64,000 nucleotides of DNA from a virus. How positions within the stretch are numbered: the stretch's first letter is position 1; each line of letters begins with the position of its first letter. Shown here in pieces: positions 34,264 to 53,866 of the stretch. The notes below the pieces were generated by a model that was given only the letters and a program-made list of their open reading frames with translations, had not been told where the DNA came from and ran no database searches. The translations under genes and the position numbers were made by a program. The stretch is from positions 64,571 to 128,570 of IMG/VR virus record IMGVR_UViG_3300031972_002122. The stretch is one strand, 5' to 3'.

Positions 34264-34625
34264 TGGAAGCGAACGGTCTTGATCCATTAACTATAGCCAA
34301 CCAAGGGCTACTTTCTAACGATCCATGTCAGGTCGCAGCTCAGGGATTGTTACATGTACGTATAGACATTGTCGATCCCGAGGATGAAATTATCATACCA
34401 GATACTGGTGGTGGGATCGTTGATAATGACATATGGAAGCGTAAGACTAAGGAAGAGAAGAAGAAATTACGTGCTAAAATCACAGTTTCGGCAACTGTTG
34501 ATGGAATTACATACGAAGAAATTAAGTATTCAAATGATTGCAGTATAACTGTACAAGACGTTGACATTCAAGTAGTTGAGTCTACTACTAAGCCTAAAAT
34601 TACCATTGAAGTTAAAAAAAAATAG
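34263..34625 (+). CDS. hypothetical protein
   Basis: ORF overlapping the upstream stop. Confidence 0.55.
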   Translation: MEANGLDPLTIANQGLLSNDPCQVAAQGLLHVRIDIVDPEDEIIIPDTGGGIVDNDIWKRKTKEEKKKLRAKITVSATVDGITYEEIKYSNDCSITVQDVDIQVVESTTKPKITIEVKKK

Positions 34626-34643
34626 TAGAAACTTTGTAAAAAA

Positions 34644-34678
34644 TTTGGTTATGTCTTGATGTTTTATATATATTTGCA
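34644..34678 (+). promoter_or_regulatory. Bacteroidota-type sigma70 promoter for tRNA block A
   Basis: TTTG...TATATTTG, matching -33 TTTG / -7 TAnnTTTG. Confidence 0.7.
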
Positions 34679-34706
34679 CATACTTATGAACGAAGAGATA
34701 CGAAAA

Positions 34707-34814
34707 ATGAAAACATTATTATATACATATAGTCTTTTATCGATGACACTGACAAGTGGCTGGTCGTTTTGCGACGGGACGGATTGTCTTTGTAATCTCC
34801 GCTGTGTGGAATAA
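34707..34814 (+). CDS. putative attenuator leader peptide of tRNA block A (MKTLLYTYSLLSMTLTSGWSFCDGTDCLCNLRCVE)
   Basis: Manual translation (in-frame upstream ATG at 34686); lies between promoter and terminator; composition matches downstream tRNAs. Confidence 0.75.
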   Translation: MKTLLYTYSLLSMTLTSGWSFCDGTDCLCNLRCVE

Positions 34815-34855
34815 AGTATTCATGTAATATGTAAGGGATACATTTTAAACATATA

Positions 34856-34891
34856 GAAGCTCGGAGACATAAAAAATCTTCGGGCTTTTTT
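34856..34891 (+). terminator. attenuator terminator upstream of tRNA block A
   Basis: GAAGCTCGGAGA/TCTTCGGGCTTT plus U-run. Confidence 0.8.
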
Positions 34892-34904
34892 AATTTATAG
34901 TAAT

Positions 34905-34973
34905 ATGGAAAATAGAGAAGACATAGAATATTATTATAGCATTACCAATGGGTGTGCTATCGTTGTGGTGTAA
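34905..34973 (+). CDS. Tyr-run uORF (MENREDIEYYYSITNGCAIVVV) reading into tRNA-Tyr
   Basis: TAT TAT TAT at 34929-34937, 12 nt before the tRNA. Confidence 0.7.
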   Translation: MENREDIEYYYSITNGCAIVVV

Positions 34974-36576: not shown

Positions 36577-36651
36577 GCGGCACACGCATAAGAGGTGGTG
36601 CACCTGCCTTCCAAGCAGGAATTAGATTCGGTTCGATCCCGAAGTGCCGCA
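36577..36651 (+). tRNA. tRNA-Gly(TCC)
   Basis: GCGGCAC/GTGCCGC; CCTGC-CTTCCAA-GCAGG. Confidence 0.9.
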
Positions 36652-37654: not shown

Positions 37655-37750
37655 AAAGAGCCGTTTAGACTGTGAGGCGTACCATAGGGATGGTGAATAT
37701 CCTTACATTTATGTGTTGCGTATATGAAAAAGTTTTTTTATATTTGATGT

Positions 37751-38107: not shown

Positions 38108-38206
38108 ATGAAAGAAAGAACTGAAATATCGAGTAGTAGTTCCAGATACTGGAAGGTGAACCTAGCAGGGTCTAGGACTGGATTGCTAATCCATGGGGTC
38201 GGGTAA
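38108..38206 (+). CDS. Ser-run uORF (MKERTEISSSSSRYW...) reading into tRNA-Ser
   Basis: TCG AGT AGT AGT TCC at 38129-38143, 7 nt before the tRNA. Confidence 0.72.
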   Translation: MKERTEISSSSSRYWKVNLAGSRTGLLIHGVG

Positions 38207-38245: not shown

Positions 38246-38335
38246 GGTAAGTTAAGCAGTCCCATGGAGGGGCGACTAGTCTTGAAAACTAGGTAGCAGG
38301 TCATGCTGCTCGGGGGTCGGTTCCTCAACTTACCG
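38246..38335 (+). tRNA. tRNA-Ser(TGA)
   Basis: GGTAAGT/ACTTACC-G; CTAGT-CTTGAAA-ACTAG; long variable arm. Confidence 0.85.
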
Positions 38336-38430: not shown

Positions 38431-38484
38431 ATGAAAGTAATAAATACATACAATCGATTACGACTGCTACTCTTACCTGAGTAG
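38431..38484 (+). CDS. Leu-run leader peptide (MKVINTYNRLRLLLLPE)
   Basis: TTA CGA CTG CTA CTC TTA; followed by a hairpin and four tRNA-Leu genes. Confidence 0.78.
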   Translation: MKVINTYNRLRLLLLPE

Positions 38485-42255: not shown

Positions 42256-42516
42256 ATGAAATCATTATTGATTATACTGGGATTGTTATTCGTTATGCCT
42301 ATAGCAACTCAACAAACACAAGAACCGTCGGCAAACGTCGCCGCGGTAGTTTATATAGTGGACGTCACAGATTTTTCATCTGATGGATACCAGTTCACTC
42401 ATACACTGGACGTTAGGCTAGATGATTCGAAGATTTCACCAGAACAAATTGTGGCAATCCTAGACAATTACACAGCATGGTATAAGACAAAATATCTGGG
42501 ATACAAAAAAATATAA
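42256..42516 (+). CDS. small secreted protein
   Basis: N-terminal signal-peptide-like segment. Confidence 0.55.
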   Translation: MKSLLIILGLLFVMPIATQQTQEPSANVAAVVYIVDVTDFSSDGYQFTHTLDVRLDDSKISPEQIVAILDNYTAWYKTKYLGYKKI

Positions 42517-42534
42517 ATATTTTTTAGCAAAATA

Positions 42535-42568
42535 GTTGTTTTTATCCAAAATATTTATATATATTTGT
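42535..42568 (+). promoter_or_regulatory. Bacteroidota-type promoter for tRNA block B
   Basis: TTTATATATATTTG, same motif as at ~34665 and ~48367. Confidence 0.65.
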
Positions 42569-42617
42569 GTCGATGGAAATGTTGAAGCATTTCTTAAAAT
42601 AAAAAAATAGAGTAACG

Positions 42618-42752
42618 ATGAAAGATTTGATGAACATAGAACGTGTGGACGAACCAGCCGAGGAGACATGGCGCGGTCGTCTAAATGGACTAGGACACCA
42701 GACTTTCAATCTGGACGATGCGGGTTCGATCCCCGTCCGCGCTACCAAGTAG
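42618..42752 (+). CDS. Glu-rich uORF (MKDLMNIERVDEPAEET...) reading through tRNA-Glu
   Basis: GAA, GAA, GAG GAG within the last 10 codons before the tRNA. Confidence 0.68.
   Translation: MKDLMNIERVDEPAEETWRGRLNGLGHQTFNLDDAGSIPVRATK
42670..42747 (+). tRNA. tRNA-Glu(TTC)
   Basis: GGCGCGG/CCGCGCT-A-CCA; CCAGA-CTTTCAA-TCTGG. Confidence 0.93.
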
Positions 42753-42784
42753 TCGTTTTATGTACTTTTTACATACTAATTAAA

Positions 42785-42925
42785 ATGACAACTAAAGAAT
42801 TATTAAAGCCAGTATACGATTCGGCACGTATTGTTACACTTAAAAAACTATATGTTCCGAAATCATTGAGAAAATATCTTAAGACTAAAAAAGTAAATGG
42901 CTTGACGGTTATGGATACCAATTAA
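42785..42925 (+). CDS. small hypothetical protein
   Basis: MTTKELLK start downstream of the tRNA. Confidence 0.5.
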   Translation: MTTKELLKPVYDSARIVTLKKLYVPKSLRKYLKTKKVNGLTVMDTN

Positions 42926-42944
42926 CAAAAAACAAAATAACGTA

Positions 42945-43016
42945 ATGAACACATACACAATCATACAACATCAACCGCAGCCCGTAGGGGCTATTCATCA
43001 ACATAGATTGGTGTAG
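42945..43016 (+). CDS. Gln/His/Pro leader peptide (MNTYTIIQHQPQPVGAIHQHRLV)
   Basis: 4 Gln, 3 His, 2 Pro; followed by a hairpin and tRNA-Pro, -His, -Gln. Confidence 0.8.
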   Translation: MNTYTIIQHQPQPVGAIHQHRLV

Positions 43017-43672: not shown

Positions 43673-43702
43673 AAGGAGATGAAGAAATTCATCTCCTTTT
43701 TT
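43673..43702 (+). terminator. intrinsic terminator closing tRNA block B
   Basis: AAGGAGATGAA-GAAA-TTCATCTCCTT plus U-run. Confidence 0.88.
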
Positions 43703-43762
43703 GTTTATACCAAAAGTTTTTTATATTATTGCATTATTAATTAACTTAAAATACTTAGCAAT

Positions 43763-44119: not shown

Positions 44120-45030
44120 TGGGAGGTGGAACGTATAATTTTAATGCTAGAGCTACGTCTTCGGTTACTAAAGGTTTTAACAAGGCAACTGTTGATTCGT
44201 TGGATACTGTATTTAAGCAGCAACGACAACGCCGAGTGCATGATAGTCTCGACCCACGCGGTGTGGTTATTCGGGAATCTAGGGATGGTGAGGATCACCC
44301 AGAATCATTAGCTATTTTAGTTGGTATAGATGTCACAACATCAATGGGTAACGTCCCAGTATTGTTAATACGTGACGGACTACCCAATATGATACAGCGT
44401 ATATTCGAGGAGGGTATCGCTGATCCACAGGTGGCGTTCATTGCCATCGGTGATCATGAGTGTGATAACTATCCATTACAGATCGGGCAGTTCGAATCTT
44501 CGGATCAGCTACTAGATGAGTCGTTGACCAACACCTATATTGAAGGTGGTGGTGGTGGCAATGGTGGTGAGAGTTATTTGTTAGCTTGGTACCACGCCGC
44601 GATGCACACGTCAATTGATTGTTTTGAAAAGCGCGGACAGAAAGGGGTTCTTATAACAATTGGTGATGAGCCATGTCTTAATAAGGTTTCTGGATCAGTA
44701 TTAGCTAGGTTGTATAATTTACAATCTGAACTAGATTATTCAGCAGCAGAATTGTTAAAACTTGCTTCGGAGAAGTATGATGTGTATCATATCAATGTCG
44801 GATCGACGTATTCTGGGTATAGATCGAGTACTAAGAATTATTGGAAAGAGTTGCTTAGTGATCATTTCATCGACGCTAAAAGTCATGAAGATATTCCTAG
44901 AATTGTTGCGGAGCTGACGTCTAAGAGTTATAGTGGTACTCGGCAGAAAGTTGAGACTGACTATGCTGAGGCTTATAATGGATCACCTACAGACGTGGAT
45001 GATATTAAAGAACCTAAAATCACATTATAA
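44119..45030 (+). CDS. vWA (MIDAS) domain protein
   Basis: DVTTSMG (DxTxS), AIGDHECD, EGGGGGNGGESY, ITIGDE. Confidence 0.85.
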   Translation: MGGGTYNFNARATSSVTKGFNKATVDSLDTVFKQQRQRRVHDSLDPRGVVIRESRDGEDHPESLAILVGIDVTTSMGNVPVLLIRDGLPNMIQRIFEEGIADPQVAFIAIGDHECDNYPLQIGQFESSDQLLDESLTNTYIEGGGGGNGGESYLLAWYHAAMHTSIDCFEKRGQKGVLITIGDEPCLNKVSGSVLARLYNLQSELDYSAAELLKLASEKYDVYHINVGSTYSGYRSSTKNYWKELLSDHFIDAKSHEDIPRIVAELTSKSYSGTRQKVETDYAEAYNGSPTDVDDIKEPKITL

Positions 45031-46178
45031 TGAATGTAAGTATTGTCACTGGAGTTGGATATGGCGACGAAGGTAAAGGCGTAACCACTAAGTGGCTATG
45101 CGAGCAATTGTTATCTGGGAATGATGATGTACATGTGATGGTAGTCCGATTTGGTGGTGGAAATCAAGTCGGACATACCACCATGGTTGATGATTTCATT
45201 CACACACATCATCACACTGGTGCTGGAACCTTAGTAAATGTACCAACGTTCTATTCTAGATTCTGTACTGTAGACCCAATTAACACGGTATCTGAGATTG
45301 AGTTCTTAACCCAGAAGGGATTTACACCACGTAATATGTATGACCCACGGTGTATGATTGTAACTCCACTCGATGTGATTTACAATCGAATGCGTCATGC
45401 TAAAACACAACACGGAAGTGTTGGGGTGGGGTTTGGTGCAACTATTGCTAGAAATGAATCACACTACCGACTATATGTTGCCGACATTGCAACTCGGGAG
45501 ATATTCATCCAGAAGTGTAAGGGTATCCAGCAATATTATAACAGCCTAGGTGTGGATTTTGATCTAGATTGTGAGGCGTTTTACATCGACTGTATTAACT
45601 TTTTAGATATTGTGGAGGTAAGCAATCTAAATCTGGAGATAACACGTTACATTGGCTCAAAATCGTCCCATATAGTATTTGAGGGGCATCAAGGGGTATT
45701 GCTAGATCAGGAATATGGTGTATTTCCCCATGTTACTAGATCAAAGACTACATGTAAGAATGCATTCACGATACTTGAAGAAGAGAACCTTAACGGGATA
45801 TGTGAGCATATAAATCAATTCATGGTAACGCGAGCATATCATACACGTCATGGTAATGGGTATTTTGAAGAGGAGGATATTTTACTGACAAATACTGAGT
45901 TTGAAACTAATAAATTCAGTGAGCATCAGGGAGCATTTAAAACAGCTCCACTTAACAAAGCATTATTGACTAGGGGAGTACTTTGTAATCTTATGGATGA
46001 GTCTGACTTAGGAAATATTAAAAGACATCTAGTAGTTACGTGTTGTGATCAAGTAGAGTCTTATGAGGACGTCATTGAATATATTTCTGAAACCACCCAA
46101 CTACTGGACACTCTGTGTATTAATGACCATCCATCAGGAAACATTAGACTATATGCCAAGGAAGAAAAAGATAACTAA
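45030..46178 (+). CDS. purA: adenylosuccinate synthetase-like protein (divergent PurA family)
   Basis: GYGDEGKG, RFGGGNQVGHT, HGSVGVG, FEGHQGVLLDQEYGVFPHVTRS, TRHGNG. Confidence 0.85.
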   Translation: MNVSIVTGVGYGDEGKGVTTKWLCEQLLSGNDDVHVMVVRFGGGNQVGHTTMVDDFIHTHHHTGAGTLVNVPTFYSRFCTVDPINTVSEIEFLTQKGFTPRNMYDPRCMIVTPLDVIYNRMRHAKTQHGSVGVGFGATIARNESHYRLYVADIATREIFIQKCKGIQQYYNSLGVDFDLDCEAFYIDCINFLDIVEVSNLNLEITRYIGSKSSHIVFEGHQGVLLDQEYGVFPHVTRSKTTCKNAFTILEEENLNGICEHINQFMVTRAYHTRHGNGYFEEEDILLTNTEFETNKFSEHQGAFKTAPLNKALLTRGVLCNLMDESDLGNIKRHLVVTCCDQVESYEDVIEYISETTQLLDTLCINDHPSGNIRLYAKEEKDN

Positions 46179-47668: not shown

Positions 47669-48341
47669 TATGTTAATAGAAACGTTGGTGACTGAAGGCG
47701 TGTATGATCCAGCGATATTTAAAGCAATTTTCATAGTAGGCGGTGCAGGCTCTGGGAAGACATTCGTTAGGAATAAATCGACTAGAGGATTGGGTTATAA
47801 AGTGGTGACGTCGGATGATATGCTTGTTTCGCTAATGAACAAGAATAATCTATCACTAAAAATGCCCCCAGAGGAGGATGATGAGCGTGATGCACTAAGA
47901 ACTATCGCTAAGGATAAAACAGACGATCGATTAGACATGTATCTAGAAAATCGCCTAGGTGTTATTATTGAAGGTACAGGGCATAATTATGAAAATATCA
48001 AAAATACTCAGCGGAGATTAGCTGAACTTGGGTACGACACGTTTATGATCTTTGTGAACGTTCCAATGGATGTAGCATTAGATAGAAATGCTAAACGAGA
48101 TAGATCAGTTCCACCAGATATTGTTAAAGAGAAATGGCTCAACGCTCAGCAAAACTTGGGTAGGTATCAGTCACTATTTGGTCGGAATAATGTTTCTATC
48201 ATAGATAATGATGACCCATCCGAGAATGTATTTGAACGAATGTGGAAAAACGTTATGATTTTTACCAAGATGAAGGTCAAAAATCACCGAGCAGTGGAGT
48301 GGATAAAGCAGCAATTGAAAAAAAAAGACAGAAATAATTAA
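47655..48341 (+). CDS. P-loop kinase, zeta-toxin/AAA_33-like
   Basis: GGAGSGKT, IIEGTG, VALDRNAKRDRSVP. Confidence 0.85.
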   Translation: MKLIDMLIETLVTEGVYDPAIFKAIFIVGGAGSGKTFVRNKSTRGLGYKVVTSDDMLVSLMNKNNLSLKMPPEEDDERDALRTIAKDKTDDRLDMYLENRLGVIIEGTGHNYENIKNTQRRLAELGYDTFMIFVNVPMDVALDRNAKRDRSVPPDIVKEKWLNAQQNLGRYQSLFGRNNVSIIDNDDPSENVFERMWKNVMIFTKMKVKNHRAVEWIKQQLKKKDRNN

Positions 48342-48346
48342 AATAA

Positions 48347-48380
48347 TTTGGTTTATTCGAAATGTTTTATATATATTTAC
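48347..48380 (+). promoter_or_regulatory. Bacteroidota-type promoter for tRNA block C
   Basis: TTTGG...TTTTATATATATTTA, near-copy of the block A promoter. Confidence 0.68.
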
Positions 48381-48397
48381 ACTAATTATAAAAAATC

Positions 48398-48478
48398 ATG
48401 TTAAGAAATATCAACATATCAGCCATTAAAGTGAATCGCATTAAAGCGAAAGGGTCGAAGTATGTCGTGTTGATATAA
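48398..48478 (+). CDS. putative attenuator leader peptide of tRNA block C (MLRNINISAIKVNRIKAKGSKYVVLI)
   Basis: Manual translation; I/K/N/R/A/V-rich; its 3' end is complementary to the terminator 5' arm. Confidence 0.8.
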   Translation: MLRNINISAIKVNRIKAKGSKYVVLI

Positions 48479-48504
48479 ACTAAATTAGAAGTAATTAAGG
48501 ATAT

Positions 48505-48539
48505 AAAGCCAGTACGACAAGATCGCACTGGCTTTTTTT
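48505..48539 (+). terminator. attenuator terminator directly before tRNA block C
   Basis: AAAGCCAGTACGA/TCGCACTGGCTTT plus U-run. Confidence 0.85.
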
Positions 48540-48542
48540 ATT

Positions 48543-48621
48543 GGCGAGTACCAGCCCATCCTGATAAGATGGAGAACTGTAATTGGTTGTTGAAAATGTG
48601 GGTTCAAATCCCATCTCGCCA
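48543..48621 (+). tRNA. atypical tRNA-Ile(GAT) lacking a normal D arm
   Basis: GGCGAG/CTCGCC-A; CCATC-CTGATAA-GATGG; GTGGG-TTCAAAT-CCCAT. Confidence 0.7.
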
Positions 48622-48637
48622 ACTTAACTGTTAAAAT

Positions 48638-51046: not shown

Positions 51047-51202
51047 CGTAGCTCAGATATCGTTTGAAACGGAAGCTGCCAATTACTAACGAGTAATGTA
51101 GTCCTGAGTAGCACACGCGGAGTGTACATTAAACGTGTGAGATTTGGTTAGAGCATTATTCTGATAGAATAAGGGTCGGTGGTTCGAATCCACCCGTCGC
51201 AA
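51042..51202 (+). tRNA. tRNA-Ile(GAT) with ~85-nt structured insertion in the D loop
   Basis: GGTGACG-TA-GCTC-AG[insert]TTGGTTA-GAGC-A-TTATT-CTGATAG-AATAA...GGTGG-TTCGAAT-CCACC-CGTCGC. Confidence 0.75.
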
Positions 51203-53720: not shown

Positions 53721-53750
53721 ATGAAGTATAAACGAAAATATAAACAGTAA
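53721..53750 (+). CDS. Lys-rich leader peptide (MKYKRKYKQ)
   Basis: AAG plus 3x AAA in 9 codons; followed by a hairpin and three tRNA-Lys genes. Confidence 0.72.
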   Translation: MKYKRKYKQ

Positions 53751-53783
53751 TTAACTTCACCAGCGAGTCTGGGGGAGTTAAAT

Positions 53784-53856
53784 ACCCCCAATGCTCGTAT
53801 GGTAGAGCACCTGACTTTTAATCAGGGTATAGTGAGTTCGAATCTCACTGGGGGTA
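53784..53856 (+). tRNA. tRNA-Lys(TTT)
   Basis: ACCCCCA/TGGGGGT; CCTGA-CTTTTAA-TCAGG. Confidence 0.92.
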
Positions 53857-53866
53857 CATATGATAT

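Follow-up and report, generated by a model that had tools for sequence, protein, structure and literature searches.

Is a phage tRNA simply transcribed and processed, or might a ribosome reading the RNA just ahead of it govern whether that tRNA can fold? The transfer RNA (tRNA) genes of phages are commonly regarded as cargo that is expressed constitutively. The question is raised by a tRNA-Glu gene in a 64,000-nucleotide (nt) stretch of viral DNA (positions 64,571 to 128,570 of IMG/VR virus record IMGVR_UViG_3300031972_002122; hereafter the window, in whose coordinates all positions are given). Here, a short upstream open reading frame (uORF; 42618-42752, plus strand) carries Glu codons, runs through the whole tRNA and contains a strand able to pair with the 5' half of the tRNA. 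The record was assembled from seawater metagenomes, comprises 128,570 bases and is estimated to be 73% complete; the window is its second half. All 26 tRNA genes that ARAGORN identifies in the record lie inside the window, interspersed with protein genes.

The tRNA-Glu gene, its leader frame and the anti-tRNA helix

The tRNA-Glu gene occupies 42670-42747 on the plus strand, with the anticodon UUC (ttc) at 42705-42707 and an encoded CCA at 42745-42747 (ARAGORN). Its identity as a tRNA of the Glu-UUC isoacceptor is borne out by a score of 58.4 bits on the Rfam model RF00005 (gathering score 29), by a regular cloverleaf with a G1-U72 wobble that can be read from the sequence, and by the placement of the anticodon in a 7-nt loop. 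This cloverleaf was assigned by hand from the sequence and then energy-evaluated, giving -26.0 kcal/mol. A search of the region 42450-42950 against Rfam at E-values up to 5 returned the tRNA as the sole match, with no T-box or other cis-regulatory RNA family. An encoded 3' CCA is present in few of the 26 tRNA genes of the window (Phe, Asp, Glu and perhaps His), most of which end in ...AC followed by A-rich sequence; an automatic count put the CCA-encoding tRNAs at 7, a figure that includes false positives.

The uORF begins with ATG and comprises 44 codons, of which the 17 upstream of the tRNA (MKDLMNIERVDEPAEET) are not tRNA-derived and the other 27 are the tRNA read in one frame. The whole unit is about 180 nt long. 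An earlier note, made from the sequence alone, had drawn attention to the series GAA..GAA..GAG GAG just before the tRNA and to a frame that stays open through the entire tRNA and stops just after the CCA. Both observations hold: the four Glu codons (GAA at 42639 and 42651, GAG at 42660 and 42663) are all in frame, and the frame ends ACC AAG TAG, with the stop one codon past the CCA. The 44-residue product belongs to no Pfam or NCBIfam family and finds itself alone in a set of 5.8 billion proteins. Two further open reading frames (ORFs) span the tRNA, at 42668-42925 on the plus strand and 42542-42748 on the minus strand. By the usual marks of a spurious ORF, the uORF overlaps a tRNA on the same strand and is without family or homologue; yet its 17 non-tRNA codons hold a cognate signal. 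The AntiFam collection covers such frames under Spurious_ORF_10-20, 'Translated bacterial tRNA' (PMC3308159). The uORF is like this type in that 27 of its 44 codons are tRNA, and unlike it in that the 17 upstream codons carry both the cognate codons and the pairing strand.

The same note had remarked that 42647-42659 is largely complementary to 42670-42682 at the 5' end of the tRNA. These two 13-mers form nine Watson-Crick pairs, one G-U pair and three mismatches, with a duplex energy of -14.2 kcal/mol, and in the minimum free energy (MFE) fold they are the core of a far longer imperfect hairpin of 35 pairs (31 Watson-Crick, 4 G-U) that joins 42617-42662 to 42667-42711. The 5' arm of this helix (42617-42662, plus strand), which we term the anti-tRNA strand, lies within the uORF, takes in its start codon and carries Glu codons. 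In the 3' arm (42667-42711, plus strand) are the final bases of the leader and the RNase P site between 42669 and 42670, together with the 5' acceptor strand, D arm, 5' strand of the anticodon stem and anticodon loop of the tRNA. Most entries in the pair list have pair probabilities of at least 0.99.

That the helix might not be competitive with the cloverleaf was the objection the note itself had foreseen. In folding of the precursor the helix wins, with an MFE of -45.0 kcal/mol against -31.3 kcal/mol for the best fold that keeps the cloverleaf; in the ensemble, the pair probabilities of the acceptor, D and anticodon stems are about 0, while those of the helix are at least 0.99. When the RNA is folded from the presumed transcription start, the corresponding values are -56.3 and -41.1 kcal/mol, so that the in silico advantage of the helix over the cloverleaf is about 14-15 kcal/mol. 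Folds of successive prefixes, which mimic folding during transcription, indicate that the helix is complete by 42711, ahead of synthesis of the 3' half of the tRNA. The hairpin is also more stable on the plus strand (-33.9 kcal/mol) than on the minus strand (-25.2 kcal/mol), a difference of 8.7 kcal/mol of the kind that a feature of the RNA, and not of the DNA, should show.

How rare such a helix is was assessed with a gain, defined as the MFE of the joined sequence minus the MFEs of the leader (55 nt upstream) and of the tRNA. The gain for tRNA-Glu is -13.2 kcal/mol, whereas those of the other 25 tRNAs lie between -4.0 and +0.2. None of 1000 dinucleotide shuffles of the Glu leader reached -13.2 (mean -2.8, standard deviation 2.1, minimum -12.0), and when all 26 real leaders were combined with all 26 real tRNAs, a single one of the 650 non-native pairs attained the Glu gain. 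The Glu pair is also the most extreme of 181 natural pairs of leader and tRNA, taken from this phage sequence and 12 others; the runner-up, a tRNA-His at -11.0, has a measure inflated by its extra G-1 pair. When natural 55-mers from both strands of the same genome were placed before tRNA-Glu, 3 of 4663 equalled the gain, and two of these three are antisense to other tRNA genes. The leaders of 16 other phage tRNA-Glu genes give gains of +0.2 to -2.6. The estimated probability of such a helix by chance is roughly 6e-4 per tRNA, or about 0.02 (0.017) over the 26 tRNAs. Thus, the helix is more than chance, with the caveat that the Glu leader is "sticky": 9 of the 25 other tRNAs give it a gain of -7 or stronger, though its own tRNA is its best partner. 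A separate case of complementarity is seen at 53729-53857, where the 55 nt before tRNA-Lys(UUU) are complementary to the tRNA (duplex -30.3 kcal/mol against -19.0 ± 3.6; 2 of 300 shuffles reach this value); that duplex fails to out-compete the tRNA's own fold (gain -1.2).

Cognate leader frames and the layout of the tRNA blocks

Glu accounts for 4 of the 16 post-start codons of the uORF that lie upstream of the tRNA (binomial 0.015 against the phage proteome). This enrichment gains weight from the rest of the genome, in which short ORFs rich in cognate codons precede tRNA units. To score this at the level of units, we took the best short ATG-initiated ORF in each spacer, computed a binomial score for the amino acids of the unit that follows, and permuted the labels among 13 curated units. 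The summed cognate score is 16.98, compared with 5.31 ± 2.06 in the permutations (P=1e-5), and the pattern persists when the Glu unit is left out (P=8e-5). The Glu unit itself scores 1.83, a value equalled by 1 of 154 non-cognate pairs. A blind automatic version, using ARAGORN tRNAs only and fixed rules, gave P=0.0017 for this genome. Leaders matched to their tRNAs are hence genuine in this phage, and the Glu frame is in keeping with them.

The cognate runs are plainly visible in the list of short ATG ORFs from the tRNA-proximal spacers. The frame before tRNA-Tyr (34905-34973) contains ..EYYYSITN, that before tRNA-Ser (38108-38206) ..ISSSSS.., that before four tRNA-Leu genes (38431-38484) ..RLRLLLLPE, that before the Pro/His/Gln tRNAs (42945-43016) ..QHQPQP..HQH.. 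(binomial 5.9e-5), and that before the Lys tRNAs (53721-53750) reads MKYKRKYKQ; the run before tRNA-Glu is ..ERVDEPAEET. Common ancestry of these leaders finds no support in their DNA, which is alignable only in the A-rich stretches before the ATG, with 47% mean column identity.

The tRNA genes fall into three blocks (A, B and C), each headed by a copy of a 68-nt promoter-like direct repeat (family D7; copies at 34612, 42503 and 48315). The block B copy (42503-42570, plus strand) consists of an A-tract followed by TATATATATTTG and ends 100 nt before tRNA-Glu. Within it, TATATTTG at 42560-42567 fits the Bacteroidetes -7 consensus TAnnTTTG (PMC6847099). This offers a lead towards a Bacteroidota-type promoter and a candidate host of that type; the motif TAHHTTTG occurs 48 times in the window as against 38.9 ± 6.0 expected, without significant enrichment. 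The element is putatively a promoter, and a sigma-70 scan did not flag it. Of the earlier description of the Glu unit as the first after the block B promoter, then, the placement stands, in that the repeat ends 100 nt before the tRNA, whereas the promoter identity is presumed.

Between this element and the uORF, an 8-pair hairpin (42575-42594, plus strand) lies at the presumed transcript start, and the fold of 42572-42617 has an energy of -6.6 kcal/mol. The hairpin is not a terminator, because A-rich sequence instead of a U-run follows it. It overlaps a 9-codon ORF (42573-42602, MEMLKHFLK), which we considered as a master leader for block B and found unsupported, with 3 of 8 residues in the amino-acid set of the block (binomial 0.15). 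The A-rich stretch that follows (42595-42617, plus strand) directly precedes the uORF ATG, is unpaired in all folds and has A at -3 and at -11 to -17. According to PMC6847099, A at -3, -12 and -13 are positive determinants of initiation where no Shine-Dalgarno sequence is used. Shine-Dalgarno-like AGGA or GGAG is found, by reading, in about a third of the long genes of this phage. The start context is thus compatible with translation of the uORF and proves nothing.

A terminator scan detected no terminator-like site between 42503 and 42670, so that the Glu unit is without the terminator of a classical attenuator, and the fold of the tRNA itself would be the switched element. Blocks A and C are laid out differently. 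In block A (region 34612-34895), a 43-codon leader ORF (34686-34814) has 29 of 43 residues in the tRNA set of the block (binomial 3.5e-3), including 27 in an unbroken row that belong to it; next come a hairpin of 13 pairs and its U-run (about 34856-34893, -15.4 kcal/mol), and after these tRNA-Tyr. In block C (region 48315-48540), a 26-codon leader ORF (48398-48478, MLRNINISAIKVNRIKAKGSKYVVLI) has 21 of 25 residues in the tRNA set of its block (binomial 4.9e-5) and is followed by the hairpin GCCAGT...ACTGGC with TTTTTTT (about 48508-48540), which the terminator scan missed because of its loop size, and then by tRNA genes. Scored with each other's tRNA sets, the two leaders give 0.92 and 0.99. 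To judge from its layout, block A looks like a classical multivalent attenuator, and both blocks have the appearance of a leader ORF, a terminator and tRNAs in succession. In block B, tRNA-Met is directly followed by a strong terminator-like hairpin (43673-43708; 11 pairs and a T-run), at which the transcript of the block probably ends.

A possible ribosome-gated folding switch and its alternatives

We propose, tentatively, that the Glu unit is a ribosome-gated switch on the folding of tRNA-Glu; we regard this as a live possibility that falls somewhat short of being probable. Transcription would begin about 100 nt upstream of the tRNA and yield a leader that is at once a short translated frame with four Glu codons and a strand complementary to the 5' half of the tRNA. 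If the ribosome were absent, or were running fast on into the tRNA body, the leader would pair with that 5' half, bury the RNase P site and exclude the cloverleaf, so that little mature tRNA-Glu would be made. If charged tRNA-Glu were scarce, the ribosome would linger on a GAA codon (A site at 42639 or 42651) and cover the anti-tRNA strand while the tRNA is being transcribed; the cloverleaf could then form and processing would be possible. The net effect would be negative feedback on the supply of tRNA-Glu. The processing step has a precedent in engineered constructs, where concealing the 5' leader in a hairpin next to the cleavage site prevents processing by RNase P (PMC8925977).

We modelled the ribosome as a 30-nt unpaired mask in folding. 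With its A site anywhere at 42636-42654, a range that holds both GAA codons, the helix advantage in this model falls from 15.2 to 1.6 kcal/mol, and the residual 1.6 kcal/mol is the gap between the MFE of the tRNA alone and its cloverleaf. When the mask is moved to the 3' half of the tRNA or to the stop codon, the MFE fold has 0 of 21 cloverleaf pairs. The Glu unit therefore shows, in the model only, the mutually exclusive structures set by ribosome position that mark an attenuator, these being the helix and the cloverleaf. Since lingering on GAA frees the cloverleaf in the mask model and later positions do not, a kinetic switch is the most economical reading. A stronger version would have the tRNA-Glu report its own charged pool by being translated: the leader would be sensor and antisense strand in one, the frame would be kept open on purpose, fast ribosomes on the 3' half would enforce the off state and a pause at GAA the on state. 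In this full form, we find the idea doubtful.

The logic of amino-acid operon attenuation, with regulatory codons in a leader and mutually exclusive structures selected by ribosome position, has been described in PMC1183508. Like the trpL, hisL, pheL, leuL, thrL and ilv leaders, the Glu leader is a short ORF whose codons match the product, with alternative RNA structures that exclude one another, and blocks A and C of the same phage fit the classical form complete with terminator hairpins. Unlike those attenuators, the Glu unit is without an intrinsic terminator, its product is a tRNA rather than a biosynthetic enzyme, the competitor of the sequestering helix is the cloverleaf, and the ORF runs through the regulated gene. 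A closer likeness is to erm/cat translational attenuation, in which a ribosome stalled in the leader opens a helix that hides a downstream element. Here too, a stall in a leader ORF would free a downstream RNA segment with no terminator involved. In erm/cat, the signal is an antibiotic-bound ribosome and the freed element a ribosome-binding site, whereas in the Glu unit the signal would be that Glu codons are decoded slowly, and the tRNA's 5' half would be set free. One example of the erm/cat type is ermB (PMC8274638). In the engineered RNase P riboswitches of Ender et al. 2021 (as cited in PMC8925977), a hidden 5' leader blocks tRNA processing and its opening restores it. These are synthetic and ligand-gated, with a tRNA designed to fold independently; the Glu helix occurs naturally, extends into the tRNA body up to the anticodon loop and would be gated by a ribosome. 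The listings and abstracts of the literature searched describe neither tRNA genes controlled by a leader peptide nor a natural leader sequestering the body of a tRNA. What is new in the Glu unit is an anti-tRNA helix that works with no terminator in the proposed scheme.

Comparative sequences that might bear on the proposal are scarce. Megablast and blastn searches against 50,697 phage records gave no match. A search of IMG/VR by way of a 303-residue neighbouring protein led to 19 loci, one of which has a tRNA-Glu, unrelated in sequence and leader; a 186-residue neighbour gave 0 loci when used alone and 27 as an alignment, with a tRNA-Glu in none of the 27. The best protein relatives of the latter neighbour are only 55-56% identical, and the phage is thus without a close relative on record; none turned up in the phage, IMG/VR or metagenome collections searched. 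Exact tRNA-Glu patterns had 0 matches in viral and metagenome contigs, while a 22-nt anticodon-arm pattern hit 6 loci and a degenerate 54-nt pattern 3, all with unrelated leaders and no leader-tRNA gain. Four sequencing runs are listed for the phage, all of seawater-metagenome DNA and none of RNA; the same phage is present in three other DNA runs, and an identical 171-nt stretch (42772-42942) in a run of a second study.

Several observations weigh against a folding switch. No orthologous locus was found in any collection searched, so that the case rests on one sequence, with no support from conservation or covariation, and the three further runs of the same phage show no variant letters, indels or joints. 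The helix advantage is calculated from nearest-neighbour energies, which leave out the tertiary contacts, Mg2+ and modifications of the tRNA. The promoter is a presumed one, and the uORF has no Shine-Dalgarno sequence, its anti-Shine-Dalgarno duplex amounting to only -2.4 kcal/mol; the latter test is uninformative, because about half of the long genes of the phage are alike in this. That the uORF stays open through the tRNA is ordinary: 26 of 78 plus-strand frames across the 26 tRNAs are open, the third that chance gives, as are 35 of 78 on the minus strand; at least one plus-strand frame is open in 19 of the 26, and in 11 of the 26 an ORF with its start codon upstream of the tRNA runs across the entire gene. 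Taken alone, the Glu enrichment is weak and its density modest. Four Glu codons occur in the best frame of 2 of the 26 leaders, the Glu leader and one other, and one or two of the four may reflect general leader composition, since the Tyr and Ser leaders also hold Glu near their N-termini. Two of the Glu codons are, moreover, badly placed, in that a mask with its A site at GAG 42660 or 42663 reaches the first bases of the tRNA. The first cognate test, which scored the 17 codons upstream of all 26 tRNAs in the best of three frames, was negative, with 43 against 43.7 ± 4.6 expected (P=0.60). We judged it too blunt and do not rely on it, because it scored cluster-internal tRNAs, took the best of three frames and required no start codon; the Glu unit does possess the cognate-codon-enriched short leader ORF of an attenuator, with this P=0.60 as a caveat. 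The blind test on two related tRNA-rich phages revealed no cognate pattern (P=0.15 and 0.35). Lastly, the other cognate leaders (Tyr, Leu, Pro, Lys) are without a dominant anti-tRNA helix (gains -1.2 to 0.0), and the proposed Glu effector would therefore be unique in the genome.

These points lend themselves to other explanations. As the main rival, the gene may be an ordinary tRNA-Glu gene in which neither frame nor helix has a function: the frame would come about because the tRNA is G+C-rich and poor in stops while the genome is A+T-rich, and the Glu codons and helix would be products of chance, or the helix a neutral relic such as a decayed inverted tRNA copy. The commonness of open frames through tRNAs, the recognition by AntiFam of translated tRNA genes as a spurious class (PMC3308159), and the nil evidence of conservation would all agree with this, as would the fact that about 1% of all 17-codon frames in the window hold at least four Glu, with 78 frames on offer. 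The stickiness of the Glu leader towards 9 of 25 other tRNAs and the antisense tRNA origin of the best-pairing natural 55-mers fit a tRNA-derived relic. We nevertheless rejected the idea that the minus strand of the leader holds a relic tRNA, as that strand has no tRNA-model match at E-values up to 5, and the 8.7 kcal/mol by which the plus strand folds better also speaks against an ordinary gene with a chance or relic helix. Chance, for its part, would have to produce a helix that is rare by four nulls (about 0.02 over the 26 tRNAs) and place it on a cognate frame in a genome where cognate frames are significant even without the Glu unit. On balance, we hold an ordinary gene to be a rather unlikely explanation.

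It may also be that the uORF is a real Glu-sensing leader and the helix incidental, with stalling acting in some other way in all units, e.g., by keeping transcription coupled or by shielding the transcript from nucleases or Rho. The cognate pattern does span units with very different downstream structures, and a dominant anti-tRNA helix is confined to the Glu unit. No U-run terminator of the type scanned for lies between the Tyr, Leu, Pro/His/Gln or Lys leader and the tRNAs behind it, and if these leaders are functional another effector must therefore exist. Such an account leaves the rarity of the helix unexplained; no candidate for a common effector is seen in the sequence, and the leader DNA is not alignable beyond the A-rich stretches before the ATG. 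It seems to us unlikely. We give still less credence, finding it quite improbable, to a helix that serves as a functional precursor structure without translation, either as a processing or decay signal, its long imperfect duplex being a target for a double-strand-specific nuclease, or as a folding trap that holds back maturation for as long as the leader is uncut. The rarity and energies of the helix suit this equally, and leader structure at the cleavage site does affect RNase P (PMC8925977). Yet the duplex includes half of the tRNA body, so that cutting it would destroy the tRNA; no Rfam family besides tRNA is present in the region; and the in-frame Glu codons and the genome-wide cognate pattern would go unexplained. 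A ribosome-gated switch on tRNA-Glu folding is thus our preferred reading, held tentatively.

Further features of the window and implications for phage tRNA supply

Between tRNA-Glu and the Pro/His/Gln leader lies a 46-codon ORF (42785-42925, MTTKELLKPVYDSARIV...) that belongs to no family; it is in frame with an 85-residue ORF that starts at 42668, inside the GAGGAG-ACATG junction. A second A+T-rich repeat (TATATGAAAAAGTTTT..TATATTAG-like; families D8, D11 and D14) occurs at 37721, 39697, 40932, 43712, 49363, 54083, 55863 and 56634. It sits before small and medium genes between the tRNAs and is possibly a second class of promoter. Rfam also detects four tRNA-like genes that ARAGORN does not call, at 36577-36651, 38246-38334, 48542-48622 and 51138-51202; two score 45.2 and 34 bits with the tRNA model, another 34 bits with the tRNA-Sec model (a long-arm gene with the anticodon TGA, Ser), and one has 28.6 bits, just under threshold. 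Some of the tRNAs that ARAGORN does call are unusually long, namely Asp (89), His (93), Met (88) and a 92-nt 'Leu'. The stretch 45030-46178 encodes a divergent adenylosuccinate-synthetase-like protein of 382 residues (Pfam PF00709, 2.4e-35; PHROG 1211). It is far below the NCBIfam PurA cut-offs and has a faint match to PurZ, which is associated with 2-aminoadenine genomes (24 bits against a cut-off of 300).

If the stronger version of the proposed switch is true, the folding and maturation of an RNA would be a third output of ribosome-mediated attenuation, besides transcription termination and translation initiation. More generally, if the phage does meter each of its tRNAs by way of ribosomes that test-read the matching codons, with the tRNA's own fold being what is switched in the Glu unit, leader-peptide control would have a new output. 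Such control would give the virus a response to tRNA depletion, e.g., that brought about by host anticodon nucleases or by a mismatch in codon usage.

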